DNA of 64,000 bases from a virus (Duplodnaviria; Caudoviricetes). The DNA lies in the IMG/VR virus record IMGVR_UViG_3300012157_000001, positions 1 to 64,000 of that record. One strand, 5' to 3'. Position numbers and translations under genes: made by a program. The notes beneath the pieces were generated by a model. That model ran no database searches. It was not told where the DNA came from and saw only the letters and a program-made list of their open reading frames with translations. Below are positions 1-30,083 of the stretch, in pieces. Each line of letters starts with the position of its first letter. Positions within the stretch are counted from its first letter, which is position 1.

Positions 1-492
1 GGATTTCGCGGCGGCGGCGGTGGTGGACGTGGAGGTGGCGGCGGATTTCGCGGCGGAGGTGGCGGCGGATTTCGTCACGGCGGAGGTGGACATCACGGCG
101 GACACCGCCGAGGTCGAGGCGGCATCTTCGTTGGCGGCTCTCCCGCGTACTTCGCGCCGGGCTGGGGCTACCCGTACTGGGACGACTCGTACCCGCTGCA
201 GGTGGTCGTTCCGGAGAACTGCGAGGAAAGTGTTCGATCGGGCTGCTACCAGCGCTGGGGCCACGACGCCGCGAAGATGGCGAGCTGCGTGGCGGACGGA
301 TACAAGGGTTGTGGCCTTCAGGGAATCGGGGCGCTACCTGGATTTGGTCGGATGGGCGTAGCGGTCGCGGTTGCGGCCGTCGTGGGCGGCGCCGTCGGAT
401 ACTTCGCGACGAAAAAGCCCATAGTCGGTATCGCGGGCGCCGTGCTCGGCGCTACGCTGCCCGTCCTGGCCCAATCGCTGCCCGCTCTGTAG
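1..492 (+). CDS. 5'-truncated Gly-rich membrane protein (putative virion protein)
   Basis: Frame of ORF 202..492 is open back to base 1 (GFRGGGGGGRGG...); LQGIG/LPGFG motifs and two C-terminal hydrophobic helices. Confidence 0.7.
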   Translation, partial: GFRGGGGGGRGGGGGFRGGGGGGFRHGGGGHHGGHRRGRGGIFVGGSPAYFAPGWGYPYWDDSYPLQVVVPENCEESVRSGCYQRWGHDAAKMASCVADGYKGCGLQGIGALPGFGRMGVAVAVAAVVGGAVGYFATKKPIVGIAGAVLGATLPVLAQSLPAL

Positions 493-506
493 CCCGGACA
501 GGTTTT

Positions 507-536
507 TTGCGTCGGTAGAGGGCGCGCGGGTAGTCT
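507..536 (+). promoter_or_regulatory. sigma70-like promoter
   Basis: TTGCGT-N18-TAGTCT upstream of ATG 552; same geometry recurs through the window. Confidence 0.5.
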
Positions 537-551
537 GGGCTTCGGGCCCGT

Positions 552-1088
552 ATGCCGACGCCGACGCTCACCGACTCGCCGCCAACGTGGTTCGGTCCCT
601 TCCGGGGACCCGAGACGACGATCAACACGATGCGGCAGCTGTGCCTCGGGGCACGCGGCGAACGCTCGATGCTCGTGCGCGGTGCGGTCGAGTACTGCAC
701 CCGAGGGCTCCTGAACAAGGACTACCTGTCCGAAATCCTGTCCATCCGAAACTTCGCCGCCGAGAAGGTCCGGTATCAGAACGACCCCGTGGCGCTGGAA
801 TTGGTGAAAGATCCGCAGCGCCTCATTGAAGAGGTTGCGCGGCACGGGATGGCGATCGGCGATTGCGACGATCTAGCCTTGCTGCTCGCGACGATGGGAC
901 GACAGCTCGGCAGGGAGTCGGAGTTCATCACCGTAGGCTTCGGTGCGCCGAACAATTTCTCACACGTGTTCACTCGCGTGAAGGAGCCGAAGACATCGCG
1001 CTGGATCGTGCTGGATCCGGTCGCGGGGACCAAAGAAGGCGCGATGCTCGCGCGTGTCACGACCTGGCGCGCCTGGAAGATCGATTGA
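552..1088 (+). CDS. Transglutaminase-like (papain-fold) cysteine enzyme; candidate maturation protease or cross-linker
   Basis: GDCDD (Cys), FSHVF (His), WIVLDP (Asp) in the order typical of transglutaminase-like domains. Confidence 0.8.
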   Translation: MPTPTLTDSPPTWFGPFRGPETTINTMRQLCLGARGERSMLVRGAVEYCTRGLLNKDYLSEILSIRNFAAEKVRYQNDPVALELVKDPQRLIEEVARHGMAIGDCDDLALLLATMGRQLGRESEFITVGFGAPNNFSHVFTRVKEPKTSRWIVLDPVAGTKEGAMLARVTTWRAWKID

Positions 1089-1100
1089 AGGAGCCAAACG

Positions 1101-1982
1101 ATGTACGTTCCCGTATTGCGAGGACTCGGATTGTTGGAGCCTACTGCCGGCGGACTTACCGTGCGCTCCGCGGCGACCTGCATCTCCGCCGACGAGCAGA
1201 AGGAGGCGCAGTCGAAGTGCGCGCCGCCGGTGAACCTACGCGGGTTCGGTCAGATGGCCATGGCGCCACGGACCACGCCGATGGCAGGGCGGCTCGCCGG
1301 AATGGATCCATGCGCGGCACTGAAGTTGCCCGTGTGTCCGACGCCGAAGTGTCTGGACGCGACGACGATCGCGATGATCATGGGATGCGCAACTGGTGCG
1401 CCGCCCGCGGGTGTCAACTGTTCGGATCCCTGGACACAATGGACGCTCATCGCTCTCGGGTTCTCCAAGCTTCCGTTCTGCCAGCGCCCGGCGCAGCTGA
1501 CGCTTCCCACGTGTCTCACGAAGGATCAGCTCGCAATGGTGTTCTATTGCCAGCGGTATCCGAAGTTCGACGGCCCGGACAAGGCGATGAATGCCAAGTG
1601 CTGGCTGTTCGGGCACGACACGGCGTTTTGGGGCACATACCAGAACAAGCTGCTCTGCGTGACGCCCGCGGCACCGCCAGCTCCGCCGCCGGTGCTGAGG
1701 CCTCCGCCGGTGCTGAAAGCGCCACCGGTCGTCGCGCAACCTCCGCCGGTGCTGAAAGCGCCACCGGTCGTCGTAGCGAAGCCGCCGCCTGTGCTCGTGT
1801 CGCCCCCACTGCTTGTCGCGCCACCGGTCATCGCGCCGCCCCCGCCGATGCTGGAGCCGCCGGTCCAGAAGGCGGGGATCGGCGTTGGCGGTCTGCTGGC
1901 GATTGCCGCGGGCGTTGCGGTCGGAGGCTGGTTGCTCTTCGGTAGAAAGAAGAAAAAGCTGCCGGGTCAGGCCGCCGCCTAG
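1101..1982 (+). CDS. Cys-rich, Pro-stalked, C-terminally anchored membrane protein
   Basis: SD AAGGAG; many Cys, PPPVLK repeats, TM helix then RKKKK. Confidence 0.75.
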   Translation: MYVPVLRGLGLLEPTAGGLTVRSAATCISADEQKEAQSKCAPPVNLRGFGQMAMAPRTTPMAGRLAGMDPCAALKLPVCPTPKCLDATTIAMIMGCATGAPPAGVNCSDPWTQWTLIALGFSKLPFCQRPAQLTLPTCLTKDQLAMVFYCQRYPKFDGPDKAMNAKCWLFGHDTAFWGTYQNKLLCVTPAAPPAPPPVLRPPPVLKAPPVVAQPPPVLKAPPVVVAKPPPVLVSPPLLVAPPVIAPPPPMLEPPVQKAGIGVGGLLAIAAGVAVGGWLLFGRKKKKLPGQAAA

Positions 1983-2808: not shown

Positions 2809-3357
2809 ATGAACAACGGACTCGGTGAGTACTTCAGCGATCAGGCCGCGTTGCCGGCGGCGCCGCAGCACCCCGCAATGTCGGGCCCGACGGCGTTCGA
2901 GTCGCCGGTACCGCCCACGCGCATGACGCCGCTCATGCCCTCGTCGCGCCTGCCGCAGATCAGCGGCATGGGTGACACTGGCATGGGCATCTTCGGCCCG
3001 ACCACAGGCATGGGAGCGTTCAACATGGGCCCGGTGCCGGCGCCTCGGCAGCCGGGCGCGTTTCGCCGGGTCGCGAGCCGGGTCTCTCCGTTCGCTGGAG
3101 CGCTCGGCGACATGGGCGACGTGATCACCGACGCGAAGTCGGGGTTCGTCTCGGGCGCAGCCGCCGCGACGACGCTGACGGGAATCATCCTCGGGATGGG
3201 CCTCCGCTTCGGCGCGGGCTGGATCGTCGGCAAGGCGCTCGCTCCGTCGGCGAAGGACGAAAAGGCGTACACCTGGGGTGGCGCCATCGGGAGCGTGCTC
3301 TTCGGGTCGATCGGTCTCGGAATCGAGGCGCTCGTCGCACAGAACGCGAGGAAGTGA
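2809..3357 (+). CDS. Membrane protein with GLG/GMG motifs
   Basis: Starts MNNGLGEYF (same motif as the repeats in 16327..18567); 2-3 hydrophobic segments. Confidence 0.7.
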   Translation: MNNGLGEYFSDQAALPAAPQHPAMSGPTAFESPVPPTRMTPLMPSSRLPQISGMGDTGMGIFGPTTGMGAFNMGPVPAPRQPGAFRRVASRVSPFAGALGDMGDVITDAKSGFVSGAAAATTLTGIILGMGLRFGAGWIVGKALAPSAKDEKAYTWGGAIGSVLFGSIGLGIEALVAQNARK

Positions 3358-3370: not shown

Positions 3371-6300
3371 ATGTCGATGAACTCGAACGTCGGTCCGCTC
3401 GGGCAGGGCGCCGTCGCGCAGTCGCAGATGGTTGCTGCCGCAGACGTGAGCGGATTGCCGACCGGATCACTCCTGTGGGCTGACCACGCGAACGAGTTTT
3501 GGGTCGTGGTTCCGGGCGGAGTAGCGCCGATCAGTCTGCTGGCCGAGCGTGCCGGGCGTCCACCGCCGGACGGTGAGCCGGCGATTGGGATGGCTCCGGA
3601 GTTTGCGCTCGTGCGAGAAGGCGACGGCCGCGTGCCGACGCACGGCACGGCGCAACGCCACGTCATTGCATGGGTCCAGAAGGCGCAGCGAGCGCATCCG
3701 AATCCGGCGCACCTGACGCTCGACGGGCAGTTTCGATCTGGGCTTGGACGCCAGGAAGCCTCGCACCTCGCGCTGGACGGCACGTTTTCGTTCGGTGTCG
3801 GCAGCAAGGACGACCGGCACGTGTCCAATGCCCGTCGCCGCGGCGCCCGCGCGGAGGAGCATGGCGCGGTCGTCGTCACGGCCGTGTTGTACCGAGGCAT
3901 CTGGGCGGTGCCGATACGCATCGAAGTTCGGTCTCAGCCAGGGCCCGCACTGGTGCAGTTCTCGTATGAGGAGAAGCGTGCTCGCGAGACGCACGTCCGG
4001 CTGATGAGCGCACTCGCTCAGCTAGGATGGCCACTCGACGCGACGGTCACGGTGCACGTCGACCAGGGCGCGGTTGCAGGCGCAGCAGGATACGCCGGCC
4101 TCGACCTGCCCATTGCGCTCGGTATGCTCGCGCTGAAGGGCCACGTGCCCCGCGAGTCACTCCGCGGAACCATGGCGGTTGGTGAGCTGGCGCTCGACGG
4201 AAGCCTGCGACCGATTCGCGGCGCGGCCGTCGCGGCGGTCGGCGCAAACGTGGACGACGAGACTGAGCTGCTGCTGGTGCCGGCGGAAAACGAGGTAGAG
4301 GCACGGTTCCTCGCCCAAAAACCTGTCATGTCGTTCGGCAATCTGTCGGAAGTCGTGTCGTACATGCAGACACGGGAGATTCCGCACGAGCCGCCCATCG
4401 AGTTCAGGCCGTGCAAGGCTGGCTATGAGGCGCACGACCCCGGGCTTCCGCCGGAAGCGGTGCAAGCGGCACAGCGTGGCCAGAATCTACTGCTAGTCGG
4501 GCCGCCTGGCGCCGGCAAGATGATGGCGGCGCGCTACATCCACTCGACGCTTGCGCGGCTCTCGGTGGCTGACGCAAAGGAGCTCACGGAGATCTACAGC
4601 GTCGCGGGGCTACTGCAGAACCACTACGCCTGTGCGCGTCCGTTCCGTGCGCCGCATCACACCGTGAGCGAAGCGGGTCTCATTGGCGGAGGTGAGGTGG
4701 TCAGGCCTGGAGAGGTAACGCTCGCGCACCGTGGCGTACTGATGCTGGACGAGGTCACGGAGTTCCGGAAGTCGACGCTATTCCCTCTATCAAGGGCACT
4801 TCAAGAGGGCCGAGTCGTATTCAGTCGTGGCGGGACGTCCATTGGGCTTCCGTCGAGCCCTCTTGTCGTGATCGCTACCGCGCTACCATGTCCGTGTGGC
4901 CACTTCGGAACGTCGCGCTGCCGATGCAGCACGCTGGCGGTGGCTAGCCACGAGGAACGCCTCCGCGAGGTGCAGTCGTTCTTCGCGATGCTGCGAGTCG
5001 ATCTGCAGCCCTTGACGGTGGCCGAGATGACGGGAGGCGCCATGCGTCGGAACGCCAAGGGCGACATCATTTGGCAGGACAACCTGCTGACGTGGAAGTC
5101 GGTGGGTGAAGATCGATCTGGGCAGCCCCGCGGCATCGAGATGATTGCCTCGGGCGAAGGGCGCGTGCGAGCCCAGGAGATGCTGGAAGAACGGCAGAGC
5201 CCACACTTCCGTCGCAGCCCACTCTCTCAGGAGATCGACTTTCTCGAAGTGGCGCTCGGCAACGGCTGGAGCACCGTGCCGCCGGAGGACATCGGTGCGC
5301 TCACGGATGCGACGATCGTGAGCCAGGACGGCTTCGTCGGCGACGACGGGAAATGGTACCCGCACCCGGAGGTCGAGGCACCGATCGTTTACGCGCACAT
5401 GAACTACGCCGTGGAAGATCCGGTCGAGATGTGGGCCGAGGGCAAGCCGGTGTTCTGGATGGCGGACGTTCTCACTGTGAACGACGAGCAGCGCACCCGA
5501 GCGAGAGAGGAGTTGTCGAGCGCCATGGGCGAAGCCTACGAGTCGAACGCACGCAAGAACGTCACGGCCGTGATCAACGCCTTCCTCGCTGGGCGGCGGC
5601 ACAGTGAAAAGACGTGCAGCACCGACGGTTGGCGGCTGTACTCGTACGCGCTGCTGATCGCGGCGAGGGTCGACGCTAAGGGAGAACCGGTAGACGTGGG
5701 CGCACCCGGCGCGCGCGTAGTGGTGCTCGACAAGCGTCTGTCGCCGAGTGCCACGACCAGCACCCAGATCAACGCCGTGCTCTCGGCCGTTTCCGGCGCC
5801 CAGGTCGTCGACGACATGCCGTATGCCGCTCGGTATCTGCCGAATGCGGATCAGAAACCGAATGCTCGGAAGGGCCAGTTCAAGGCCCCGGCTTCACTGA
5901 GTCCCGCGGAGAAGTTTTTCTTCGAGTGGGCTGGTGGCAGCTACACCGCTGGCGCGAGCACAGCGCAACGAAAACGCGAACGTATCGATCAAGCCAAGGC
6001 GATGGCCGCGGCGGAGGCAGAGGGGGAAGATCGCGGATGGAAGGTCGAGTGGGACTACGATCAGGAGCCGGACATCTCGTGGATGGACGACGAGCAGCGC
6101 GAGGAGCTGGAGCGCGGAGCCACGGAGATGCTCGTCGCGTTGCTTCGTGACGAAAACGGCAACGTGCTAGCAAGCCTAGGCGGCGTGCACGTGAGCGCAC
6201 GTGGAGGTCGCGACCCTTACGGACGGGTTGTGGAAGCGGAGCTCATCCAGGAGGCTCTGGAAGCCGAGCGCAGCTCCGGAACCGCGATGGCGCTCAACCG

Positions 6301-6553
6301 CGGAAAGCGACGGCAGGCGCGCAACCCGGTATTCCGGCACATGGATCTCGGCGAAATCGAACAGGTACTGGGCGCTCAAGAGATCGCTAGAGTCATGTCG
6401 TCGGATCGTCCGGAGGCGCACGCGAAGTCCCGCGCCGCCGGATGGTGGGACGCGAACGAGCCGGACTACCACGACGCCTACACGAATCTCGCGCGTATGC
6501 TCAAGGCAGGCGTGCTCGACGACCTGGTCGCAGAGGCACGCGGAGCCCGCTGA
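3371..6553 (+). CDS. Multi-module protein with a degenerate ComM/YifB (Mg-chelatase-like AAA+) domain plus 4-5 unrelated modules
   Basis: GLDLPIALG, GELALDGSLRPIRG, GPPGAGK, RPFRAPHH, PGEVTLAHRGVLMLDE, PCPCG are ComM/YifB signatures (~3860-5010); modules separated by Asn/basic linkers. Confidence 0.8.
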   Translation: MSMNSNVGPLGQGAVAQSQMVAAADVSGLPTGSLLWADHANEFWVVVPGGVAPISLLAERAGRPPPDGEPAIGMAPEFALVREGDGRVPTHGTAQRHVIAWVQKAQRAHPNPAHLTLDGQFRSGLGRQEASHLALDGTFSFGVGSKDDRHVSNARRRGARAEEHGAVVVTAVLYRGIWAVPIRIEVRSQPGPALVQFSYEEKRARETHVRLMSALAQLGWPLDATVTVHVDQGAVAGAAGYAGLDLPIALGMLALKGHVPRESLRGTMAVGELALDGSLRPIRGAAVAAVGANVDDETELLLVPAENEVEARFLAQKPVMSFGNLSEVVSYMQTREIPHEPPIEFRPCKAGYEAHDPGLPPEAVQAAQRGQNLLLVGPPGAGKMMAARYIHSTLARLSVADAKELTEIYSVAGLLQNHYACARPFRAPHHTVSEAGLIGGGEVVRPGEVTLAHRGVLMLDEVTEFRKSTLFPLSRALQEGRVVFSRGGTSIGLPSSPLVVIATALPCPCGHFGTSRCRCSTLAVASHEERLREVQSFFAMLRVDLQPLTVAEMTGGAMRRNAKGDIIWQDNLLTWKSVGEDRSGQPRGIEMIASGEGRVRAQEMLEERQSPHFRRSPLSQEIDFLEVALGNGWSTVPPEDIGALTDATIVSQDGFVGDDGKWYPHPEVEAPIVYAHMNYAVEDPVEMWAEGKPVFWMADVLTVNDEQRTRAREELSSAMGEAYESNARKNVTAVINAFLAGRRHSEKTCSTDGWRLYSYALLIAARVDAKGEPVDVGAPGARVVVLDKRLSPSATTSTQINAVLSAVSGAQVVDDMPYAARYLPNADQKPNARKGQFKAPASLSPAEKFFFEWAGGSYTAGASTAQRKRERIDQAKAMAAAEAEGEDRGWKVEWDYDQEPDISWMDDEQREELERGATEMLVALLRDENGNVLASLGGVHVSARGGRDPYGRVVEAELIQEALEAERSSGTAMALNRGKRRQARNPVFRHMDLGEIEQVLGAQEIARVMSSDRPEAHAKSRAAGWWDANEPDYHDAYTNLARMLKAGVLDDLVAEARGAR

Positions 6554-6568: not shown

Positions 6569-7537
6569 ATGCACTACTCCTACGCACCGAAGCCAGTCGC
6601 CACGACGCCGTGGGGCGCGCCGCTGCAGGGACTCGGACAGTACGAGGTTCCAAACCCGTACGTCTCGACGACGCACCCGTATCCGACGCGATACCACGGC
6701 GGCATCTGGACTCGCCCCGTCTTCGGATATCCGCGGATGGTCTCCGTGCAGTCCGTCTTCAAGTGCGACGACTTCAACGACGGCAACCCGGCGCTGCGCG
6801 GGTTGAACGGTGACTACCAGGTCGGCAATGGTGTCTTCGGTACAGCCAACGGCGGAGGCGGCGTGTTCGGGCCGAGCCTCTACGGGCTCGCCGGGCAGGC
6901 GGACGACATCGACGCAATCGCGAACTACATCTTGAACACCGGTACCGTTTCGACGGCGGCGTTCGACCTCCAGTCCCAGTTTCGGTCCTGGTACAACAAC
7001 CTCGGTCCGTACGATCGCAACTTCAGCGATGACGTGATGGCAAAGGCGACGAGCTATCGCGCTCAGTTCAACGCCGCTAACGTCTCCGGTGGTACTGCTC
7101 CGCTCCAGCCGGCAACGACGTCCTCCTCGGGTGGCGGTGGCGGTGACGCCTTCTCGAAGGCTTCGATCACGAACCTCCAGCAGCTGCTCAACGCATCGCT
7201 CGTCAAGGCAGGATACAATCCGCTCACTCCGGACGGTGCGCTCGGTCCGAGTACGTGCGGCGCGATCCAGACGTATCGGCAGATCACCGGCAATCCGCAG
7301 TCGGGCAACACGTACGACTCCTTCTGCGCAACCAAAAAGCCTTGGAATGCGCCGACCAAGGCGGGCTCTGGCGGTGGCGGCGGTACGCCGACGTACGTGC
7401 CGCCTCCCGTGGCGCCCACGACGCCACAGCCGACGATGCAGGCCGGCATGCTGGGTGCAGGTGCATGGGCGATGGTCGCCGGTGGTGTGCTCGCGATCGG
7501 CGTCGCGGTGGTCGGCAAGAAGAAAGGATGGTTCTGA
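6569..7537 (+). CDS. Membrane-anchored protein with peptidoglycan-binding-like domain
   Basis: LQQLLN..GY.PL..DG.LGPSTCGAI motif; C-terminal TM + KKK. Confidence 0.7.
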   Translation: MHYSYAPKPVATTPWGAPLQGLGQYEVPNPYVSTTHPYPTRYHGGIWTRPVFGYPRMVSVQSVFKCDDFNDGNPALRGLNGDYQVGNGVFGTANGGGGVFGPSLYGLAGQADDIDAIANYILNTGTVSTAAFDLQSQFRSWYNNLGPYDRNFSDDVMAKATSYRAQFNAANVSGGTAPLQPATTSSSGGGGGDAFSKASITNLQQLLNASLVKAGYNPLTPDGALGPSTCGAIQTYRQITGNPQSGNTYDSFCATKKPWNAPTKAGSGGGGGTPTYVPPPVAPTTPQPTMQAGMLGAGAWAMVAGGVLAIGVAVVGKKKGWF

Positions 7538-9786: not shown

Positions 9787-9847
9787 TCACAGTCGTCCAA
9801 AAGCGACGGCGTGAATCACTTGGGGAAGCGTGTCGTCTAATGGGCAC

Positions 9848-10810
9848 ATGCCACGATCAAGGCGCCAGCTCGGAGTTGGCCAGCGCCACGGGCATCTGAC
9901 GATTGTTGCCCGAGGCAGACTGAACGGAACCTGGCGCGTGCGCTGCTATTGTGGTGTCGAGAAAGACGTACAATCTGGAACCCTCGGCACAGCGACATTT
10001 TCCTGCGGATGCCAACAGAACATTGGCAAGTATCGGCCAGGGGCGAGGTTCTTAGGTCTGACACTGGTGGCGCGCCTCGGTCGCCGGTGGCGCATGCTGT
10101 GCGAATGCGGAAAGGAGATCATCATCGAGGCGGCGAATGCTGGGCGCCAGCGCTCGTGCGGCTGCCACCTGCGGCGCGCAACCAGAGAGCGCCGCGCTCA
10201 GATAATTGGTAAACGATTCGGCCGCCTCGTGGTCCTTAACTTTCAAGGCACCGATGAACGCAGAGAGGCGCGCTGGCTATGCGTATGCGACTGCGGACAA
10301 CAGAAGTCATGGGTACCGATGGGTTCGTTGAAGAGCGGAAGAACGACCTCATGTGGATGTGCGCATGAAGATGCCTCAAGGCGTCGTATCTTGCCTGAGA
10401 ACCGTTCGCTCACCCCGGCGCAGCGACAACGCAGATATGCCCAGTCAGACCGCGGCATGGCCGCGAAACGCCGGGCTCAGTTCCGCTATGCGCGTCGGCG
10501 GTGGGCATCGATTCGCGGGGACCCCGGCGTGAGCTCTAGTCAATGGCTCTTTATTCAGTGGGCCTACGAGCAGCGCTGTGCGTACTGCGGGAGACGACGA
10601 GAACTAACGCAGGACCACGTTGTACCGCGCAGCAAAGGGGGCCGTCACTCCCCAGACAATATCGTCCCGGCCTGCTGGGACTGTAACTACAAAAAGCGCG
10701 CAAGAACGCTGGATGTGGCGCTTCAGATCCTGAAAGTTGCGGACGCCGACGGGTTCGTAGATAAATGGTCACACGTGGGAAACACCGCGAAAGAGTGCCA
10801 TGATGCGTAG
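9848..10810 (+). CDS. HNH endonuclease (homing-endonuclease-like) with Cys-rich N-terminal repeats
   Basis: CAYCG...DHVVPRSKGG...NIVPACWDCN; three G.RF..L....W.C.C.CG...SCGC repeats; lower GC than neighbours. Confidence 0.85.
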   Translation: MPRSRRQLGVGQRHGHLTIVARGRLNGTWRVRCYCGVEKDVQSGTLGTATFSCGCQQNIGKYRPGARFLGLTLVARLGRRWRMLCECGKEIIIEAANAGRQRSCGCHLRRATRERRAQIIGKRFGRLVVLNFQGTDERREARWLCVCDCGQQKSWVPMGSLKSGRTTSCGCAHEDASRRRILPENRSLTPAQRQRRYAQSDRGMAAKRRAQFRYARRRWASIRGDPGVSSSQWLFIQWAYEQRCAYCGRRRELTQDHVVPRSKGGRHSPDNIVPACWDCNYKKRARTLDVALQILKVADADGFVDKWSHVGNTAKECHDA

Positions 10811-11132
10811 AGTTTATACTTCCACCGCCCACTTCCGGGCTCCGTACGACACGCCTAACGTGAGCTTCGCCGGCTTCGGAGCGGACCACAGTGCGTACGA
10901 CGCGAATCGTTGGCCGCCGGGGCGGAGCTATTGGTCGCCGCACTTTTACCGAGCGCCGTATCAGGCTGGCTACTACCAGTCTGGAGCGCTGCGCGGCTTG
11001 GGAGGAGATCCAACTAGTCCAACCGGTGTCGGAGCGATCATCCTGATCGTCGGAACGATCATCGTAGGTGTCGGTCAGGACTACCTGAAGAAGATGGTTC
11101 GGTCGGCTGACATCAGCGGAGCAGGTCGCTGA
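10800..11132 (+). CDS. Small membrane protein
   Basis: FRAPY/YRAPY, FAGFG, LRGLG motifs, C-terminal TM. Confidence 0.65.
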   Translation: MMRRVYTSTAHFRAPYDTPNVSFAGFGADHSAYDANRWPPGRSYWSPHFYRAPYQAGYYQSGALRGLGGDPTSPTGVGAIILIVGTIIVGVGQDYLKKMVRSADISGAGR

Positions 11133-12910: not shown

Positions 12911-15286
12911 ATGGCGTACGAGGCGAGGATTGGGCCGTACCCAAAGCCGCGTATGGCGCTCCGTCCGATCCCTTCGTACGCCGGTCTAGGTGTCACGGCT
13001 CCGCCGCCGGTGAGCACGGTGCCGGGACTCCCACCGTCGATCGCGTGGGCACCGAAGAACCTGCCGAAGTTCAATCCCGCGGATTACAACCCGAAAACTT
13101 TCGCGGACGCGCAGTTTACTCGATGGGCGAAACCGGAGATGCAGGCCGGTATCGCATCCGGACGCACTCTCCTCTCACAGAAGCTCGGGATCGCACTGCC
13201 GGCGCTGCCGGCGCTGAACAAAAACGAACTCGTCGATTGGACGACGGGTTACGTGCAGGCCAACGGAGTGCCAACGGATCTGGAGTCCGGCACCAAGATG
13301 GTCACCGCGCTCGCGCACGCGCAGGCGCAGAAACTCGGTGTGCCCCCGGAGTACGTCGCCGCGGCCAACGTCGTAATGAACCCTCCGAAGACGGTCGCCG
13401 AAGGCTTCGCAATGGTGGCGGACCTAGGCGAGGCGTACTTCATGAGGTTCGGCATCCCGTTGCTTCAGAACGAGCTCATGAGCGTGAGCACGAATCTGGC
13501 GATGGTTGCGCAAGCGATTCCGATCCAGTTCGCGATTGCTGGATTCGATGCGCTTTCGGATGGCAAGCTGAGCACCCAGGAAATCGCCGGCATCGCAGTG
13601 CAGGCCGCAGCGTATGCATGTGGCCTCTTGCTGCAGGCTATTGGGATCCCCGCGCCGCTCGGCGCGCTCCTCGCTGGAGTGATCGCTCAGGGCCTGATGA
13701 CCGTCGCCGACGACGTCCTGCACGCGGATGATGCTGACACGCGCGCACGGCGAGAGGCGATTGCGGCACTCGAAGCTCAGCGCCAACAACTAATTACCCA
13801 GTGCGCCACGGCCGCGCAGCAGGTGTGGAACAAGACGCAGGACTACTGGGACAAGGTGCTCGTTCCGATCCAAACGCTCCTCGATCAGCCGCTGGTTGCG
13901 CAGAAGCTGCAGGCCGCAGGCGGCATCCGATACTACGGGCGCAACGTCGTGACGCTGCCGCCCGGCGTCACGCTGCCGAACGCATGGCCGCGCACGAAAT
14001 GGCTCGACTCGTCGATCGTTGCTGCAGCGGCCGATGCGGACAAGGCCGCAAAGGCAGCGGAAGCGCTGGCTGAATCGTACAAGAGTGATTTCCGCAACGC
14101 TGGGCGCTACCGAGCAGAAGCGATTGCGGCGCGCGCAAAGGCGACCGACCTCGCAAAGAAAGCGGCGGCCGAGAAAAAGAAGCCGCTCTACGAGTACGGA
14201 TTCGACTGTCTGTGGTGGGAGGGGGACCTGGTTTTTGACTACCAGCCCGACACGAGGGGACTCCGCCAGTGGTATCCAGCGAACGCGCGACCGTACCCGG
14301 ATGGGTGCCTTTACTTCACGCGGAAAAAGCCGAACACGCAGGCAGGAAAACAGACGTTCGACCAGGCGCAGTGGATGGATGCGAACTACTGGCCGAACCC
14401 AACGCTGATGTGGGAGCGCTGCGCTGTAGCGAGACCCCCGAGCGGATACAGCTACGACCCGCCGAGCTTTCATGCATCGGCAGAGGACGAGGCGCACTGT
14501 CTGCCGACGATGCAGTGGGCGGCGCAAATGCGCATGAACTTCGACGCCTTCAATGTGACGCGCACCATGACCGTGCGGCTCACACCGTACAAGGATCATA
14601 CGTCTGCGGTACGCACGAAGACGGTGACCGTTCTGCCCGGGGCCATGGTCGACGGTAAAGTGAACGCGCAGGCGGCGCTCATGTTTTGGGGTGCGATTCG
14701 GCCGGCGACGGTGTGGTCACAGTACTCCCAGTCCGCCGACGCGCCCGACGTCACGCAATGGAAGGCGTTTGCGTATATCGATCCGTCCGCGATCCAGGTC
14801 TACAAGCAGGACGGCAGCCTGACGGCCAGGCTGAACATCAACGCGGATTACTGCGATACGAATGAGTGGGCGGCGGCAGTACAGACAGCAGCGGCAGCGG
14901 CGGCGCTGGTGCAGCAGGACATCATCCGCACGGTTGCGTGGCAGGTCGGTGCGGAAGAGGCAGCGCGGCAAGCGAAGATCACAAAGGAAGCCGGGGACAA
15001 GGCGGCAGCGCAAACGTCGGCGGCGAACGCGAAGGCCGCCTGGCAGCAGGCTGCGGCCTCGGCGATTGCGCAGCAGGTGGCCAGGGCGCAGCTGCAGGCG
15101 CGAGCGGTCGCGTCGGCGCGCCAAGCCTCGGGGGCATTTGCCGCCGCGACGGCAATGCGCCTCCGGTTCCAAACGGCACAGGCAACGGCCGAGTTCCAGC
15201 GCAAAGCCCTCATCGTCGCCGGGGGTGTCGCAGCGGGCGCCCTGCTGTTTTGGCTGGTCTCCCGCAAGAAGCAAGCGCGGCAGTAG
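12911..15286 (+). CDS. Large membrane protein (791 aa), Ala-rich coiled regions, C-terminal anchor; candidate entry protein
   Basis: Long clean ORF, internal hydrophobic hairpin, C-terminal TM + RKK. Confidence 0.75.
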   Translation: MAYEARIGPYPKPRMALRPIPSYAGLGVTAPPPVSTVPGLPPSIAWAPKNLPKFNPADYNPKTFADAQFTRWAKPEMQAGIASGRTLLSQKLGIALPALPALNKNELVDWTTGYVQANGVPTDLESGTKMVTALAHAQAQKLGVPPEYVAAANVVMNPPKTVAEGFAMVADLGEAYFMRFGIPLLQNELMSVSTNLAMVAQAIPIQFAIAGFDALSDGKLSTQEIAGIAVQAAAYACGLLLQAIGIPAPLGALLAGVIAQGLMTVADDVLHADDADTRARREAIAALEAQRQQLITQCATAAQQVWNKTQDYWDKVLVPIQTLLDQPLVAQKLQAAGGIRYYGRNVVTLPPGVTLPNAWPRTKWLDSSIVAAAADADKAAKAAEALAESYKSDFRNAGRYRAEAIAARAKATDLAKKAAAEKKKPLYEYGFDCLWWEGDLVFDYQPDTRGLRQWYPANARPYPDGCLYFTRKKPNTQAGKQTFDQAQWMDANYWPNPTLMWERCAVARPPSGYSYDPPSFHASAEDEAHCLPTMQWAAQMRMNFDAFNVTRTMTVRLTPYKDHTSAVRTKTVTVLPGAMVDGKVNAQAALMFWGAIRPATVWSQYSQSADAPDVTQWKAFAYIDPSAIQVYKQDGSLTARLNINADYCDTNEWAAAVQTAAAAAALVQQDIIRTVAWQVGAEEAARQAKITKEAGDKAAAQTSAANAKAAWQQAAASAIAQQVARAQLQARAVASARQASGAFAAATAMRLRFQTAQATAEFQRKALIVAGGVAAGALLFWLVSRKKQARQ

Positions 15287-15342: not shown

Positions 15343-16110
15343 ATGAGCTACCACACGAACGCTGTTCTCGATCCTCTTCCTCGCCTGGGTCGCCGCTCGG
15401 TAGGCATGGCCGGCTTCGGTGCGTTGGGGCTTCTCGGTCTCGGTGCGACGCCGAACATAACGCTCGTCGGCAACATCGCCGCAGTCGCGCGGAAGTTTCC
15501 GAATGCTACGGACGGAGAGGTCATCTACCTCGCCGTCGCGGGAACTCCAGGGCTTACTCCGGCAGAGATTCAGGCGATCACGCCAACCCTGCTAGGTAAG
15601 CTGGTTGCCATCGCGCGCGCGAATCCGACGTACTCGGCGCAGCAGGTGTTTCAGGGAACGCTGGTCAAACTGTCGGAGCCCACGATGGCGAGCCGCGTGG
15701 CCGTCATGACGAAAAAGGCAGGCCCGGTTGCTGGAGCATTCCTCAAGGCGTGCATGCTCGACCCGGTCGGAAGGCGCGACACGAATGAGTGCTACGCCCT
15801 TGCGGAGAAGCAGGTCGGTTCGCTCCAGGGAGATCAAACTCTCTTCTACAACAACTGCCTGTCGCAGAAGGCGTCGGACGTGCCGGTGGTGGTCCAACAC
15901 AATGCGTGCCTTGCGGAAGCAAAAAAGCTGTCGACCGGACCGGGACCCGCACCGACGGTGACGGCACCGTTCACTCCGCCGCCCGAGCTTACGCAGCCGG
16001 TCGACGAAGGCGGCGCTCCCATGTCGAAGTGGGTTTGGATCGGTGGCGCGGTCGCGGTTGCTGGTCTCGCTTACGTCCTTCTGAAGAAGCCGGCGCCCGC
16101 GCACGCTTGA
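15343..16110 (+). CDS. Membrane-anchored protein with Cys pairs
   Basis: MAGFGALGLLGLG motifs; Pro stalk; TM + KK. Confidence 0.7.
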   Translation: MSYHTNAVLDPLPRLGRRSVGMAGFGALGLLGLGATPNITLVGNIAAVARKFPNATDGEVIYLAVAGTPGLTPAEIQAITPTLLGKLVAIARANPTYSAQQVFQGTLVKLSEPTMASRVAVMTKKAGPVAGAFLKACMLDPVGRRDTNECYALAEKQVGSLQGDQTLFYNNCLSQKASDVPVVVQHNACLAEAKKLSTGPGPAPTVTAPFTPPPELTQPVDEGGAPMSKWVWIGGAVAVAGLAYVLLKKPAPAHA

Positions 16111-16326: not shown

Positions 16327-18567
16327 ATGGCCAGAACAATCGGCAAAGCGTTCAAGATCGGAAAGAAGCAAGTACGGTCGTACGGCTATGCCTCGCCGAA
16401 TCGAGGCACGTACAAGCCGAACGCAGGCGTGACCGCCATCGCCGCCGTGAACGGCCGCGGCGCCCACGGGAAAAACCGCAGCAGGAGCGCGCGCTCCGCG
16501 ATGAATGGTCTCTCTCGGACGCAGCGGCTCGATCGTGCACGAAAGATCACGAGCTCAGGTCGCGCGGCGTTCGCGCGCCGCATGAGCGCGAGCATGCGCT
16601 CGAACGCCACGCCCGCGCAGATCGCGACGGCGCGGCAGAACATTCGCGCCGCCATCGCGGCTCGGAAGTCGCATCGACGCAACCGGAAGCACCGGCGCAA
16701 TCAGGCGCCGGTCAAAACATCGACTCCTGCCACGACGGCAAACCGCCGCGGCAAACGGCCCTCGAAACACAAGGCCAACTCTCGGAGGAAAAAGACAATG
16801 AGAACCCATCGTCGGAACTTCAGCGCGAAGCAGCGGGCAGCGGCCCTGCGCAATCTCGCCAAGGCACGCCGCGCGCGTCGTCATTCGCCGAATCGGCGTG
16901 GCGGACGGAAGGCCCGCCGCAACGGGCTCATGTCGAACCGGAAGCGTCGGCATCGCCGGAACAACGGCGTGGCCGCTGCGGCTCCGGCGCAGACGGCGAA
17001 CCGGAAGCGTCGGCATCGTCGGAACTTCAGCGCGAAGCAGCGGGCAGCTGCCCTGCGGAATCTTCGCAAGGCGCGCGCAGCGAAGCACCGTCCGAACCGG
17101 AAGCACCGCGCTCGCAAGAACGCGCGTCGTCGTACGCACCGCCGCAACGGGCAAATGGCGAACCGCCGTCATCGCAAGAACGCGCGTCGTCGTACGCACC
17201 GCCGTAACTTCACGGCGAAGCAGCGTGCCGCGGCTCTGCGCAATCTCCGCAAGGCGCGTGCAGCGAAGCACCGTCCGAACCGGAAGCACCGTCGCAACGC
17301 GCGTCGGCGTCCCCGCAAGAACGCGCGTCGCCACCGCCGTAACATCCGGATGGCGACGAACCGCCGTCACCGGAAGAACAGCCGTCGGCGTACGCACCGC
17401 CGCAACTTCACGGCGAAGCAGCGGGCAGCCGCCCTGCGCAATCTCCGCAAGGCGCGTGCAGCGAAGCACCGTCCGAACCGGAGGCGTCGCACGCGGAAGA
17501 ACGCGCGTCGTCGTACGCACCGTCGCAACGGGCAGATGGCGAACCGCCGTCACCGTCGCAACGCGCGTCGGCACGGCAAGGCGTTCCGGAAGAACCAGTT
17601 CATGGCGACGGCCATGGCGGTGATGAAGATCGGAACGGTCACGACCCTCGGCTTCCTCGGCCACAAGCTCGCGACCAAGCTCTTCACGGACAACGTCGTC
17701 GACAAGATCTTCGGATCTTCGGGTGTCGTCACGCCGCCCGCACCGGCGGCAACGAGCGGCCTCGAAGCACTGCAGCCGTACCGCACCATCATCGGTGGCG
17801 CGGCGATGGCGGCGCTCGGCATCTGGGCGACCAACCGGTTCGTGAAGGATGTGCGCGTCAAGATGTTCGTGACCACGGGCATCGCGACGTCGCTCATGCA
17901 CTCGGTCGCGGTGTCACTGCTCGCGAAGTTCACGCCGCAGTACACGGGCTACCTCTCGGGCCACGACGCCACGGCGGTTAACCTCGCCGCGATGTACGGG
18001 CTCGGCGGCGGCGCGAGCATCATGCCGGAGTACCACCCGATCGGTTTCGGTGAGTACTTCGCGCAGAACGGTCTGGGCGAATACTTCGCTCAGAACGGGC
18101 TCGGTGAGTACTTCGCGCAGAACGGTCTGGGCGAATACTTCGCTCAGAACGGGCTCGGTGCCTACACCGGCAACCCCGACCTGATGCAGGCGGCGGCCGG
18201 TTACGGTGCGCTCGACAATCCGAACTCGAACATCATCGATCCGGGCAGCGACCTCGATCGGCAGCTCTCGATCGCCGAGGCAGCCGCGGGCGTCGGTGCA
18301 GTGGCTCCTTACGAGGCGGCAGCCGGCTTCGGCCGCGTGCAGCCTTTCGAGGCGGCCGCTGGCTTCGGTCGGGTGCAGCCCTTCGAGGCGGCAGCCGGCT
18401 TCGGCTCCGTCGTGACGGTGCCGCCGACGGCGGACACCTGGATCCCCGGAACGAGTGACGGCGAGCTCTGGGCCGGCACGGTGGCCATCCAGCAGGGCCA
18501 GTCGGCGAACGAGCTGAACAGCGCCGGCATCCTGGAGACCGGTGGCAACCAGGGGGTGTTCGGCTGA
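16327..18567 (+). CDS. Arg-rich protamine-like core protein fused to membrane segments and GxG repeats
   Basis: SD GGAGG; ~420 aa of R/K/H/N-rich repeats (4x RRNF[ST]AKQRAAALRNL), about 3 hydrophobic segments, GEYFAQNGL x4, EAAAG repeats. Confidence 0.8.
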   Translation: MARTIGKAFKIGKKQVRSYGYASPNRGTYKPNAGVTAIAAVNGRGAHGKNRSRSARSAMNGLSRTQRLDRARKITSSGRAAFARRMSASMRSNATPAQIATARQNIRAAIAARKSHRRNRKHRRNQAPVKTSTPATTANRRGKRPSKHKANSRRKKTMRTHRRNFSAKQRAAALRNLAKARRARRHSPNRRGGRKARRNGLMSNRKRRHRRNNGVAAAAPAQTANRKRRHRRNFSAKQRAAALRNLRKARAAKHRPNRKHRARKNARRRTHRRNGQMANRRHRKNARRRTHRRNFTAKQRAAALRNLRKARAAKHRPNRKHRRNARRRPRKNARRHRRNIRMATNRRHRKNSRRRTHRRNFTAKQRAAALRNLRKARAAKHRPNRRRRTRKNARRRTHRRNGQMANRRHRRNARRHGKAFRKNQFMATAMAVMKIGTVTTLGFLGHKLATKLFTDNVVDKIFGSSGVVTPPAPAATSGLEALQPYRTIIGGAAMAALGIWATNRFVKDVRVKMFVTTGIATSLMHSVAVSLLAKFTPQYTGYLSGHDATAVNLAAMYGLGGGASIMPEYHPIGFGEYFAQNGLGEYFAQNGLGEYFAQNGLGEYFAQNGLGAYTGNPDLMQAAAGYGALDNPNSNIIDPGSDLDRQLSIAEAAAGVGAVAPYEAAAGFGRVQPFEAAAGFGRVQPFEAAAGFGSVVTVPPTADTWIPGTSDGELWAGTVAIQQGQSANELNSAGILETGGNQGVFG
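18049..18156 (+). repeat. Coding tandem repeat, 4 x 27 bp arranged as 2 x 54 bp
   Basis: GGTGAGTACTTCGCGCAGAACGGTCTG alternating with GGCGAATACTTCGCTCAGAACGGGCTC. Confidence 0.9.
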
Positions 18568-23336: not shown

Positions 23337-23564
23337 ATGTCGTTCATGACGACGCCCACCGACGTGATGACGCTCGTGCGGACGGCGCGGAAGCTCGACG
23401 GAAATCCGTTCTCGCTCGCCGGTAAGCTCGTCGGGCTTGGGGCGGACGAGCAGCGAGCCGGTATCCCAGCCTGGGCCTGGGTCCTTGCTGGCGTGGGGGT
23501 CGGAGTGGCCATCGGGTTGAAACTCGCGCCGGCCGCGCGGGAGCGCCTAAAGGCGTTCACCTGA
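23337..23564 (+). CDS. Small membrane protein
   Basis: IPAWAWVLAGVGVGVAIG TM. Confidence 0.65.
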   Translation: MSFMTTPTDVMTLVRTARKLDGNPFSLAGKLVGLGADEQRAGIPAWAWVLAGVGVGVAIGLKLAPAARERLKAFT

Positions 23565-24578: not shown

Positions 24579-25127
24579 ATGTCCCTCAATCAGTCAGCGT
24601 ACCAGTCGGGAATCCTCGGCTTCGTGCCGCCTCCCGCCGGTGCGTTTCGCTCGGGCTCGCTCGGTGGTGGTCCGCCGCCAGCGCCCGCATACCACTCGGG
24701 CTCGCTCGGTGGTGGTCCGCCGCCCTCGGGCGCGTTTCGTTCGGGCGTGCTCGGCGTGTTCGGGACACCGCCGCCGTCGGGTGCGTTCAAGTCCGGCTCG
24801 CTCGGCGTGCTCGGTGCTCCGCCGCCGTCGGGCGCGGTAAAGAGCGGCATCCTCGGCTCACTCGGCGTGCCGCCGCCCGCAGGCGCATTCCGCTCGGGCT
24901 CGCTCGGGGTGCTCGGTGAGTCGTACGCGGGCCTCGGAGCGGGCGGGAGCATCATGCCGGTGTACCACCCGATCGGTGACGCGACGGCGGTCAAGCTCGC
25001 CGCGATGTACGGATTCGGCGACGCTCCGGCGCTGCCGGCGCTGCCGAAGATTCTCGTTGCTGCCGCCGGTCTCGGCGCCGTCGGCGTGATCTGGTGGGCG
25101 ATGAAGCGCCGCCACGCGAAAACCTAG
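24579..25127 (+). CDS. Repeat membrane protein (PPPxGAFxSGxLG x ~6)
   Basis: Internal ~15-aa repeats; TM + KRR. Confidence 0.7.
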   Translation: MSLNQSAYQSGILGFVPPPAGAFRSGSLGGGPPPAPAYHSGSLGGGPPPSGAFRSGVLGVFGTPPPSGAFKSGSLGVLGAPPPSGAVKSGILGSLGVPPPAGAFRSGSLGVLGESYAGLGAGGSIMPVYHPIGDATAVKLAAMYGFGDAPALPALPKILVAAAGLGAVGVIWWAMKRRHAKT

Positions 25128-27369: not shown

Positions 27370-27966
27370 ATGAGCTACGACGTAGTGAACCCGACGTACT
27401 ATCAGACATTCCAACAAGGGACGCCGTTTCATCCCGGTGCGCCAGGCTGGACGCAGGCACCGTTTCCGACGTGGGGCGAGAATCCGAATCTTGCCGGTCG
27501 GCGACGGCTAGCGACCGACGGGCTCGGGAACGTCGTCGCGATCAGCGGCCTCGGCTCGATCGTCAAATCCAGTGACCCCGGCTTCACATGCCCGGCGGAT
27601 GCACCGCACCGGGTCGTCGACAGCCGCAGTGGCATCTCGTGTTACGGTGACTCCGAATGGGCAGTATTGAATCAGCAGGCTAAGCCACCGCCCGCGTTCG
27701 TACCCCCGGCGCCGTCGGCGTATCAGACGAGCCCGATCACGATTCCATCGGTGCCGCCGTGGCTGCGAGCACTCAGCACCATTTCCGCTGCTGCGTGCGC
27801 CTACCACGGGTACAAGCGCAACGAATCCGTGGGCTGGGCGTTCGGCTGGGCGTTCTTCGGCTCTGTCGCACCGTTCTTCGCGCTACCGGTGGCGCTCGCT
27901 CAGGGGTTCGGTAAACCGAAGAAGATGGTCTCGAACCGGCGTCAACGCCGCCGCACGCGGCGCTGA
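27370..27966 (+). CDS. Membrane protein with GLG motifs and basic tail
   Basis: DGLG, ISGLG, AYHGYKRN..GWA..W, tail SNRRQRRRTRR. Confidence 0.7.
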   Translation: MSYDVVNPTYYQTFQQGTPFHPGAPGWTQAPFPTWGENPNLAGRRRLATDGLGNVVAISGLGSIVKSSDPGFTCPADAPHRVVDSRSGISCYGDSEWAVLNQQAKPPPAFVPPAPSAYQTSPITIPSVPPWLRALSTISAAACAYHGYKRNESVGWAFGWAFFGSVAPFFALPVALAQGFGKPKKMVSNRRQRRRTRR

Positions 27967-27969
27967 GCG

Positions 27970-28104
27970 ATGTACGTTGCAACCCCGCTACCGAGGCGCC
28001 TGGGCGCCGTCCAGGAGCCGACGAGGGGCACGCCGGCATGGGTATCGCTGGTGATCCTCGGCGTGGCCGTAGCCGTTTTCGTGGGCACGCTGCGGCCTCG
28101 TTGA
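27970..28104 (+). CDS. 44-aa membrane peptide (absent from the ORF track)
   Basis: MYVATPLPRRLGAVQEPTRGTPAWVSLVILGVAVAVFVGTLRPR* fills the gap between genes. Confidence 0.55.
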   Translation: MYVATPLPRRLGAVQEPTRGTPAWVSLVILGVAVAVFVGTLRPR

Positions 28105-28156
28105 CAGCGGGCTGAAAAGTTGCGGGGTGCGCCGAGCGGGGCGTAGCCTGAGGGGC

Positions 28157-28831
28157 ATGGACTACTACCGGCCCGTCACCGCCCACGTCCCGCTCCGCCC
28201 GATGGGCGCCTCACCTGACGGCCTCGGCGCGTACTTCGCGACGACCTACACGCAAGGCATCAGTCCAAGTCCAGGTGGCGTGTTTCCGGTCGCGTACAAG
28301 CCGATCACGAGGCAGTCGACGCAGGGACTCGGGAACGGAGTCAATACGGAGCCAGGCACGAGCTCGATCGCGGTGTACCACCCGATCATTCGGCAGGCGG
28401 CGAACGGACTCGGCTGCGGTTGCTCGGCGGCCGGCGCTCCGGCTGCAGGTGTCGGTGAATTGCCGGCGTGGCTCTCCAGCACGTGGGTCAAGGTCGGTCT
28501 CGGTGCCGCAGTGCTCGGCGCGCTCTGGTTCGCGTTTGGTCGAAAGAAGAAGCAAACGGCGAACGCTCGTCGCCGGCATCGTAGGAACGCCAAGTGGTCA
28601 GGCAAGTACAAGCGCTCCCTTCCGGATTCGTCGTTTCTGTACGTTGGACCGGACGGTAAGCGACACTTCCCGTACAAGAATGCGGCGGGGCACATCGATC
28701 TGCCGCATCTTCGGAACGCGATTGCGCGGATCCCGCAGTCGAATCTGTCGGCTCTTCACCGTCATGCGCTTCAGCAAAAGGCGCAGAGGATCCTCGCTCA
28801 GCACGGCGGCTACGCGCGGGCAGCGGCGTAA
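28157..28831 (+). CDS. Membrane protein with a C-terminal small phage domain (DUF6582-like)
   Basis: Promoter TTGCGG-N18-TAGCCT 7 nt upstream; GLG motifs, TM, ANARRRHRRN, then LPDSSF...RHFPY...HLRNAIAR. Confidence 0.65.
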   Translation: MDYYRPVTAHVPLRPMGASPDGLGAYFATTYTQGISPSPGGVFPVAYKPITRQSTQGLGNGVNTEPGTSSIAVYHPIIRQAANGLGCGCSAAGAPAAGVGELPAWLSSTWVKVGLGAAVLGALWFAFGRKKKQTANARRRHRRNAKWSGKYKRSLPDSSFLYVGPDGKRHFPYKNAAGHIDLPHLRNAIARIPQSNLSALHRHALQQKAQRILAQHGGYARAAA

Positions 28832-29082
28832 TGCCTAGGCGCGCGAAGCGTCCAGTCGACGATGAGGCGCTCGTCGCCGAGTGGCTGGGCGAGCATCCGT
28901 CGGTCGAGCTGCAGGTCACCTACCTTTCGATCGATCGGCAGTGGCTCGTAGCGGCGTATCTGGTCGGATCCAGACAGATCCACGGATTCGAAGCGGACTA
29001 CCTGGCGGTCCACCAGCACGCTTCGCTCATCGCAGCAATGCTCGCGACGGTCAATGAGCTGGAGCAAAGCGGAGAGGTCTAG
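28831..29082 (+). CDS. Hypothetical protein
   Basis: TAATG coupling to previous gene. Confidence 0.5.
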   Translation: MPRRAKRPVDDEALVAEWLGEHPSVELQVTYLSIDRQWLVAAYLVGSRQIHGFEADYLAVHQHASLIAAMLATVNELEQSGEV

Positions 29083-29087
29083 GCCCC

Positions 29088-30083
29088 GTGACGTTTCTCC
29101 CTGCGCACATCGACGCCGAGTACGTGCGCCGCGCCTGCGCGGGCGGGCGCTGCAAGCCGCATCGCGCGCCTCCACTCAGTGAGTGCACTACGTTTGCGGT
29201 TCGCCGGCTGCCCGCCGGGCGGATCGCATTTCGGCGGCAGGTAACGCCGGTTGCTCAGCTGGGGGCGGTGGGGGAGTTCTACTTGCGGCCGACCTATCGG
29301 CGCGTGCCGACGTCGTGGCTGTGGGAGCGGCCCGCGTGGCGCGGCTACGCCGGCACGGAGGCGCCCCCGCCGGGGATTGAGTTTGGGGTGCCCCCGTGGC
29401 GAAGCCTAGACGGCGGCCTTGGTGCGCTCGGTCTGGGAGGCGTCGAGATTCCGGACAGGCTGACGCCGCTGACAGAAGCGCAAGCAGCTGGAGCTCTGTC
29501 GACGGCGTACAAGCGCGTTACCGGTGTTTTCCCGACACAGCGAATTCTTGAGCTCTTGATGGCGCAGACCGCCCAGGAGACCGGGAGATGGCTACGGCTG
29601 CACAACTACGGGTTCGGCAACCTAAAGGCCAGCGCGAGCAATGCGTACTACCAGGGCTTTCGGTGCTGGGAAGTCGTGAACGGCCAAACGGTTTGGTACG
29701 AAGCGGACAATCCGATGTGCCGATTCGCGGCGTACCTCACGCCGGAGGATGGCGCCGAGCAGTACATTCGGCTGCTCCAAAAGCGAGCTCACTGGTGGAA
29801 CGGGCTCCAGACGGGCACGGTGGAGGGCTTCGTATCCGGTCTCACGACGGTGCCGAAGTTTTTCACTGGAGATGCCGGTGTGTACGCCAGAAACATGAGG
29901 CAGTTCATTTCGGAGTACGCAGGCGTCGCGGCTGAGTACGCCGGTCAAGCCGCGCAGTTTGCCGGCGCGCACAAGTACGCAGCGATTGGCACCGCCGTCG
30001 GCGTATTCTCACTCACGTTCGGCAGCTGGTACCTCTACAACGCGATGCAAAAGAAACGAAAGGAGCGGTCGAAGACAACGTGA
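29088..30083 (+). CDS. Membrane-anchored glucosaminidase/muramidase (GH73/FlgJ-like); start uncertain
   Basis: AQTAQETG.W...N..GN.KA...FAAY......Y motif set; C-terminal TM + KKRK. Confidence 0.65.
   Translation: MTFLPAHIDAEYVRRACAGGRCKPHRAPPLSECTTFAVRRLPAGRIAFRRQVTPVAQLGAVGEFYLRPTYRRVPTSWLWERPAWRGYAGTEAPPPGIEFGVPPWRSLDGGLGALGLGGVEIPDRLTPLTEAQAAGALSTAYKRVTGVFPTQRILELLMAQTAQETGRWLRLHNYGFGNLKASASNAYYQGFRCWEVVNGQTVWYEADNPMCRFAAYLTPEDGAEQYIRLLQKRAHWWNGLQTGTVEGFVSGLTTVPKFFTGDAGVYARNMRQFISEYAGVAAEYAGQAAQFAGAHKYAAIGTAVGVFSLTFGSWYLYNAMQKKRKERSKTT

Follow-up and report, generated by a model that had tools for sequence, protein, structure and literature searches.

A Gly-(Leu/Phe)-Gly leader tag in the particle-building module of an uncultured bacterial virus, and a transglutaminase-fold enzyme that may read it

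The window analysed here is the first 64 kb of a 179,401-bp contig of 64.6% G+C (IMG/VR virus record IMGVR_UViG_3300012157_000001). About half of the particle-building proteins encoded in its left 31 kb carry a short conserved tag ending Gly-(Leu/Phe)-Gly, and this tag almost certainly serves the morphogenesis module as a functional signal under selection. The module opens with the gene at positions 552-1088, which encodes a small cysteine-protease-like enzyme, and tag and enzyme may together form a maturation system in which the one is the cut site and the other the protease. This explanation is favoured tentatively, at somewhat less than an even chance, and cleavage is predicted from sequence and modelled structure.

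Enrichment and position of the tag

The left 31 kb is a single co-oriented block of about 37 genes, nearly all without a family match, which closes with a DnaJ-domain gene and an M15 endolysin. About 20 of the block's proteins have a C-terminal hydrophobic helix followed by a basic tail and are therefore tail-anchored, against 9 of the 237 proteins elsewhere in the genome. The tag was first pointed out in a preliminary description made from the DNA letters; the motif instances listed there are all present in window genes, the gene at position 1 included, and the tagged proteins are, as described, mostly membrane proteins without signal peptides.

The enrichment is measured against proteins whose residues have been shuffled within each sequence (500 shuffles), so that composition is controlled. 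In the left module (34 proteins, 8,937 residues), G[LF]G occurs 40 times against 8.8 expected (standard deviation 2.9), and none of the 500 shuffles reaches 40. The five-residue pattern (M/L/I/F/Y)xG(L/M/F)G, the consensus originally put forward, is found 16 times against 2.1 expected, and the control tripeptides G[AVSTI]G, G[LF]A and A[LF]G are without enrichment. For the 237 proteins of the rest of the genome the figures are 36 against 36.5 for G[LF]G and 12 against 8.0 for the five-residue pattern. The claimed difference between left and right thus withstands the composition control, and the enrichment is specific to the module; in the right half, where the tag had been described as not noticeable, the genes at 36639 and 37591 also carry the pattern, consistent with chance.

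The motif is also placed non-randomly. G[LFM]G lies within the first 50 residues of 12 of the 37 left proteins (2.2 expected), compared with 15 of 237 elsewhere, and in about 18 module proteins it forms the end of an N-terminal leader of 4-55 residues. At 18 curated window sites, chosen for their final [LF]-G, the preceding residue is Gly in 15, P5, four residues ahead of the final Gly, is hydrophobic in 11, and the residue after the final Gly is mostly Ala, otherwise varied. An M-x-Y start is shared by 7 of the 37 block proteins and by 3 of the 237 others (p = 4e-5). The proteins that start in this way include those at 6569, 11990, 12911, 15343, 20611, 27370 and 28157, making M-x-Y a second conserved leader element.

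Seven metagenomic relatives likewise have a 3-5-fold excess of the motif. Across 24 IMG/VR contigs, whose loci were retrieved with a narrow alignment of the enzyme, G[LFM]G sums to 250 occurrences against 79.6 expected in the 10 kb downstream of the enzyme gene, and to 58 against 43 upstream of it.

A fixed motif behind a drifting leader

Homologues of the module proteins are found in metagenomes only. The [LFM]-G core is kept in orthologues of just 50-60% identity, while leader length and sequence drift. The 791-residue protein at 12911-15286 has 14 homologues (51-93% identity) in which the M-A/S-Y start and the Leu-Gly (L26, G27) are nearly invariant; the leader between them is 9-27 residues long, and the linker that follows it is variable too. 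One apparent exception to this conservation is a miscalled start in locus L013 (10001-12496), where the public gene call begins late and the true start, 57 nucleotides upstream, restores an M-A-Y leader ending Leu-Gly. The syntenic loci of seven contigs give the same pattern in at least 10 more orthologue groups, those of the window genes at 2809, 7540/8167, 10800, 11421, 11990, 15343, 21401, 22560 and 23337.

Because [LFM]-G is fixed across these orthologue sets, the invariant core of the tag is x-[LFM]-G; the first Gly and the hydrophobic P5 residue are common in orthologues but not invariant. The five-residue consensus therefore stands as an enriched pattern, though its conserved part is confined to this core. 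The comparison of orthologues also bears out the proposal that the tag usually sits between a short leader and a conserved protein body.

The family of the protein at 6569-7537 records the gain and loss of a leader. The window gene has an ATG start, a good ribosome-binding site and a 23-residue leader ending LQGLG, which is common only to the protein and its two closest relatives. About 60 of the 72 homologues begin directly at the conserved body, and at four loci a leader is impossible because a stop codon precedes the start by 1-2 codons. At least four other homologues (P0315, P0316, P0322, P0355) have unrelated N-terminal extensions that end [LM]-G, 0-12 residues from the body, and in one close relative the extension ends G-V-G. 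In this family the leader thus behaves as a module that can be detached, with the motif as its downstream limit.

The enzyme and its link to the tag

The product of 552-1088 matches Pfam PF01841 (Transglut_core) at 25.2 bits, over a cut-off of 23, and at 26 bits in a six-frame search of the genome; its family has 2,192 representatives at E <= 1e-3. The AF2 model has a pLDDT of 95.9, and its best Foldseek matches, at probability 1.00, are the transglutaminase-fold putative proteases 3kd4 and 3isr, together with PNGase and LapG; the viral cell-wall isopeptidases PeiP and PeiW match more weakly. The model can be assigned with confidence to the transglutaminase-core fold. Across 50 homologues Cys105, the cysteine of GDCDD, is nearly invariant, His138 invariant and Asp155 nearly invariant, in papain-like order. 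The Cys-His-Asp enzyme described beside the tagged genes is thus confirmed, with a transglutaminase/papain-like fold, and it travels with the tag. It has no hydrophobic segment and hence no membrane anchor.

Three close metagenomic homologues (P0016, P0017, P0019) harbour inteins (Hint) exactly ahead of the catalytic Cys, that of P0019 with a LAGLIDADG endonuclease. Inteins typically home to indispensable sites, and their position marks the catalytic Cys site as strongly constrained.

The same synteny, with the enzyme gene heading the module, is seen in the relatives L011 and L014 and in the 24 IMG/VR contigs (25-182 kb). In many relatives the enzyme has an N-terminal extension of its own that ends [FLW]-L-G, and in L011 the sequence YLSGLG lies between the catalytic domain and a C-terminal membrane anchor. 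Pfam searches gave no Peptidase_C5 match, either for the enzyme or for the genome as a whole, and the Pfam models tried detected no S78 prohead protease in the genome. Since these models yield no other protease candidate, 552-1088 gains support as the protease of the tag.

A more distant link comes from a cultivable phage. Among 50,697 phage records the enzyme has a single relative, gp34 of Salisaeta phage SSIP-1 (tblastn E 5e-4), whose catalytic domain aligns with that of 552-1088 at 99.4% probability (hhalign, E 7e-22). It is annotated in GenBank as a structural protein and, unlike 552-1088, has a C-terminal membrane anchor. Its neighbours ORF36, gp37, ORF52 and gp53 carry G-[LM]-G at residues 17-33, and three of the four are tail-anchored, so that tagged, tail-anchored neighbours accompany the enzyme in the 43.8-kb genome of SSIP-1 as in the 179-kb genome here. 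No further shared gene was detected between the two genomes, and the pair of enzyme and tag has therefore persisted across a very large evolutionary distance.

Features of the module

The features of the module are given below by window position (nt, nucleotides; +, forward strand).

1..492, +, 3' part of a Gly/Arg-rich tail-anchored protein that starts at the other contig end with a 7-residue leader ending LQGLG; LQGIG and LPGFG lie close to the C-terminal helix
552..1088, +, transglutaminase-core cysteine enzyme of 178 residues with Cys105 (in GDCDD), His138 and Asp155; candidate processing protease
1101..1982, +, Cys-rich tail-anchored protein; LRGLG at nt 1116-1130 and LRGFG at nt 1236-1250, with IAGLG at the equivalent place in the L011 orthologue
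2809..3357, +, tail-anchored protein; 6-residue leader ending GLG (nt 2812-2826), kept in 5 orthologues, then G-M-G cassettes
3371..6553, +, 1060-residue protein of several domains, its ChlI/Mg-chelatase-like AAA+ core preceded by one internal RSGLG (nt 3734-3748)
6569..7537, +, tail-anchored protein; LQGLG at nt 6623-6637
7540-8163 and 8167-9786, +, two paralogous tail-anchored proteins; basic leaders with SLGSLG, then LSGFG (nt 7600-7614) and FSGLG (nt 8224-8238), respectively
10800..11132, +, small membrane protein; leader-end FAGFG at nt 10866-10880 and a second site, LRGLG, at nt 10989-11003; conserved in 6 orthologues
11421-11993 and 11990-12328, +, two proteins with leaders ending AALG (nt 11475-11489) and FGLG (nt 12050-12064)
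12911..15286, +, 791-residue tail-anchored protein; M-A-Y start, leader-end YAGLG at nt 12977-12991
15343..16110, +, tail-anchored protein; M-S-Y start, with PRLG, MAGFG and LLGLG in nt 15406-15444
16327..18567, +, 746-residue protein with a very basic N-terminus; tandem 9-residue NGLG cassettes (nt 18064-18159) and three AAGFG repeats near the C-terminus
18719-19471 and 19638-20603, +, two extremely conserved beta-rich proteins, candidates for the capsid shell; no N-terminal tag
21401-22384, 22560-23333 and 23337-23564, +, three proteins with LALG (nt 21458-21472), AHLG (nt 22608-22622) and LVGLG (nt 23427-23441), conserved, at residues 20-35
24579..25127, +, tail-anchored repeat protein; [FY]-[RKQ]-S-G-x-L-G units with Pro-rich spacers between them
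27370-27966, 28157-28831 and 29268-30083, +, three tagged proteins with ISGLG, four x-GLG and GLGALGLG; no orthologues in the relative loci fetched
30489..31097, +, endolysin (Peptidase_M15) at which the module ends; N-terminal membrane helix

The two beta-rich proteins are 93-94% (18719-19471) and 89% (19638-20603) identical to their counterparts in relatives whose other genes are about 50% identical. The 250-residue family of the first comprises 724 clusters in the protein collection, on contigs of up to 138 kb, and 18719-19471 probably serves a large, uncharacterised group of viruses as main shell protein. It has no family or PDB match and its AF2 prediction gave no fold (pLDDT 37); profile searches of three conserved beta-rich proteins against PDB sequences returned noise only, and hhalign comparison of the 250-residue family with the SSIP-1 capsid proteins gp45 and gp46 was not significant.

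Several module genes have peculiarities of their own. The AAA+ domain of 3371-6553 has a deviant Walker A motif at about residue 383, with G-K-M in place of G-K-S/T, and in relatives this domain is a separate gene of 548 codons, not part of the 1060-residue protein. A 9-residue cassette, an aromatic pair followed by Q-N-G-L/M-G, recurs in tandem at 2959-3015, 18064-18159 and 24651-24938, and is common to three unrelated genes and their orthologues. The HNH endonuclease gene at 9830-10810, between module genes, is located elsewhere in the relative L002, which suggests a mobile insertion. The J-domain (DnaJ) protein at 26068-26682, which closes the structural block and holds the same place in the relatives L001/L002 and L004, possibly recruits the host chaperone for assembly. 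Of the two adjacent proteins encoded in 30080-31097, which have a similar N-terminal membrane helix, the second, with the Peptidase_M15 domain, is probably a membrane-tethered endolysin.

The contig is listed in IMG/VR with direct terminal repeats, and its CheckV completeness is 100%. The repeat is 33 bp long (window 1-33 and genome 179369-179401) and falls inside a tandem Gly-Arg repeat of the coding gene that spans the contig origin; the exact junction and the copy number of the Gly-Arg repeat may depend on the assembly. Terminase_6N, Phage_portal and the HK97-type capsid have no match in the genome among the Pfam models tried. The best 25 of 101 matched PHROGs families include those of replication, recombination, methylase and endolysin genes, with no terminase, portal or capsid family among these 25. 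The large module proteins have no PHROGs or NCBIfam annotation, no close relative came up when the first 20 kb were compared with phage records by megablast, and an IMG/VR pattern scan with the 791-residue protein returned nothing.

Cleavage, docking and other explanations

In the proposed mechanism, the tag would be a modular N-terminal assembly leader, often with an M-x-Y start and usually basic, that ends (hydrophobic)-x-G-[LF]-G. It would be borne on the cytoplasm-facing domains of the tail-anchored virion membrane proteins and on some other late proteins, and the enzyme of 552-1088 would recognise [LF]-G and remove it. Papain-like enzymes select their substrates chiefly through a hydrophobic P2 residue. 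Given this preference, and because leaderless homologues begin at this point, the cut would most likely fall directly after the final Gly, placing Leu or Phe in a hydrophobic S2 pocket. The peptidase activity of the enzyme, its action on the tag and the position of the scissile bond are all three inferred from the tag, the fold and their co-inheritance. A complex prediction of the enzyme with the first 50 residues of the 791-residue protein gave a score of 0.00, which without controls counts neither for nor against the pairing.

The pairing of cut site and protease is supported by the module-specific and recurrent enrichment, by the fixed [LFM]-G behind leaders of drifting length, by the gain and loss of the leader in the 6569 family, by an enzyme fold near that of LapG with its triad intact, by the synteny of the enzyme gene and the enzyme's own tag, and by the annotation of SSIP-1 gp34 and its tagged neighbours. 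Other observations weigh against it. In the 6569 family, about five extended homologues have a junction without [LFM]-G. Within the module, the association of tag and tail anchor is a trend only (p = 0.10, with a crude predictor). The modelled fold is one that also covers amidases, cell-wall isopeptidases and cross-linkers, so that a peptidase of viral proteins would be one option among several. Finally, some leaders are 4-7 residues long, which is short for a propeptide, and the tandem GLG-ending cassettes of 16327, 2809 and 24579 look more like multivalent docking motifs than like cut sites.

The strongest alternative, a serious one though less likely than cleavage, is that the tag is an uncleaved linear motif. 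It would dock late proteins on a common receptor (capsid shell, scaffold or membrane-insertion factor) or sort them to the virion membrane, and the enzyme would have another job, for example as a virion-borne hydrolase of the cell wall or envelope at entry. The very short leaders and the cassettes fit docking at least as well as cleavage, and so do the many motif copies in the repeat proteins and the tagging of tail-anchored proteins without signal peptides. The tagging of the enzyme itself in many relatives is what a packaging signal would predict, gp34 is annotated as a virion structural protein, and the fold matches include the phage cell-wall isopeptidases PeiP and PeiW. However, a removable peptide predicts what is found at the leader-body junction, where the motif lies and where leaderless homologues begin. 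At the top of the fold matches stand putative proteases, PNGase and LapG, not cell-wall enzymes, and the M15 endolysin and several proteins that bind peptidoglycan are already encoded in the module. An assembly or targeting signal, which the preliminary description had offered as its alternative, is in any case compatible with a cleavable leader.

It is improbable that the tag is cut by a host protease or another viral one and that 552-1088 is unrelated to it. A DUF2201 metallopeptidase-like protein is encoded outside the module, and the co-inheritance of tag and enzyme could reflect a shared late operon; against this, the two co-occur from the 179-kb virus to SSIP-1 with no other recognisable shared gene, and the enzyme carries the tag itself. 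Still less probable is a true transglutaminase that cross-links the tagged proteins, a role that had been suggested alongside processing. The fold and triad are common to transglutaminases, and at a few sites (LQGLG, AQNGLG) a Gln stands two or three residues ahead of the final Gly-Leu-Gly, but no position of the tag has a conserved Gln or Lys, and the place of the Gln is mostly taken by Ser, Ala or Arg. The chance that Gly-rich, high-GC composition or paralogue ancestry has produced the motif as a by-product is close to negligible: module proteins are somewhat Gly-rich, 7540 and 8167 are paralogous and the cassettes inflate the counts, but this is contradicted by the shuffle tests and by the enrichment in the seven relatives and the 24 contigs, and the tag occurs in at least 15 mutually dissimilar proteins and is missing from Gly-rich proteins of the right half.

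Comparison with known systems

Adenoviruses, large eukaryotic DNA viruses and tailed phages characteristically mature by proteolysis at consensus sites. The adenovirus protease adenain (MEROPS C5) cuts (M/I/L)-X-G-X|G and (M/I/L)-X-G-G|X in virion precursors, and the likeness to it is twofold: a hydrophobic-x-Gly-x-Gly signature on many unrelated virion proteins, often near a terminus, and a cysteine enzyme encoded among the particle genes. Adenain belongs to clan CE, with His and Glu/Asp before Cys, whereas the enzyme here has its Cys first and a predicted transglutaminase-core fold, and PF00770 (Peptidase_C5) has no match. The conserved core is [LFM]-G and not G-x-G, the host is bacterial, the enzyme is not known to have a cofactor peptide, and cleavage is a prediction. 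The enzyme is thus no relative of adenain, and the earlier phrase 'adenovirus-like maturation' can refer only to convergence, if to anything.

The proven endopeptidase LapG detaches an N-terminal module at a small-residue motif. It is a cellular enzyme of the periplasm, depends on calcium and cuts at Ala-Ala. The enzyme here shares its fold and triad (PDB 4u65, 4fgq; Foldseek TM about 0.5), but 552-1088 has no Pfam BTLCP match and the likeness is at the level of the fold only.

In phage T4, capsid-targeting sequences are removed by the prohead protease gp21, a serine protease that is made as a pro-form and cuts at L/I-x-E sites. These sequences and the tag are alike in being short N-terminal leaders that are shared by unrelated particle proteins and end in a simple motif. 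The T4 enzyme belongs to an unrelated serine protease family and acts in a tailed-phage head, whereas the proteins here have membrane anchors and the Pfam models tried detected no tailed-phage genes.

PeiP and PeiW, from archaeal viruses (PDB 8z4f, 8jx4), are likewise virus-encoded Cys-His-Asp enzymes of the transglutaminase fold. They cut isopeptide bonds of the host cell wall and not viral proteins, and their match to 552-1088 is the weaker one (TM 0.40-0.44).

Significance

Proteolytic maturation of this kind has not, to our knowledge, been described for membrane-containing tailless bacterial viruses, and no description of a tag-plus-enzyme system was found in the literature searched. Put in full, and held a shade more cautiously than the pairing of cut site and protease, the proposal concerns a widespread lineage of uncultured bacterial viruses that have genomes of 95-180 kb, lack tailed-phage genes and are linked at a distance to SSIP-1. 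In these viruses a transglutaminase-fold protease that reads hydrophobic-x-G-[LF]-G would mature the membrane-anchored particle proteins. The system would have arisen independently of adenain and converged on a near-identical site grammar. SSIP-1 is cultivable, so a direct experimental test is possible.

If the tag is cut, it would supply a simple rule for predicting the mature ends of proteins in a very large and otherwise unannotatable group of viruses, whose size is indicated by the 724 clusters of the capsid-candidate family alone. Cleavage would also give the transglutaminase fold a new viral role and provide a clear case of a site grammar convergent with that of adenain.

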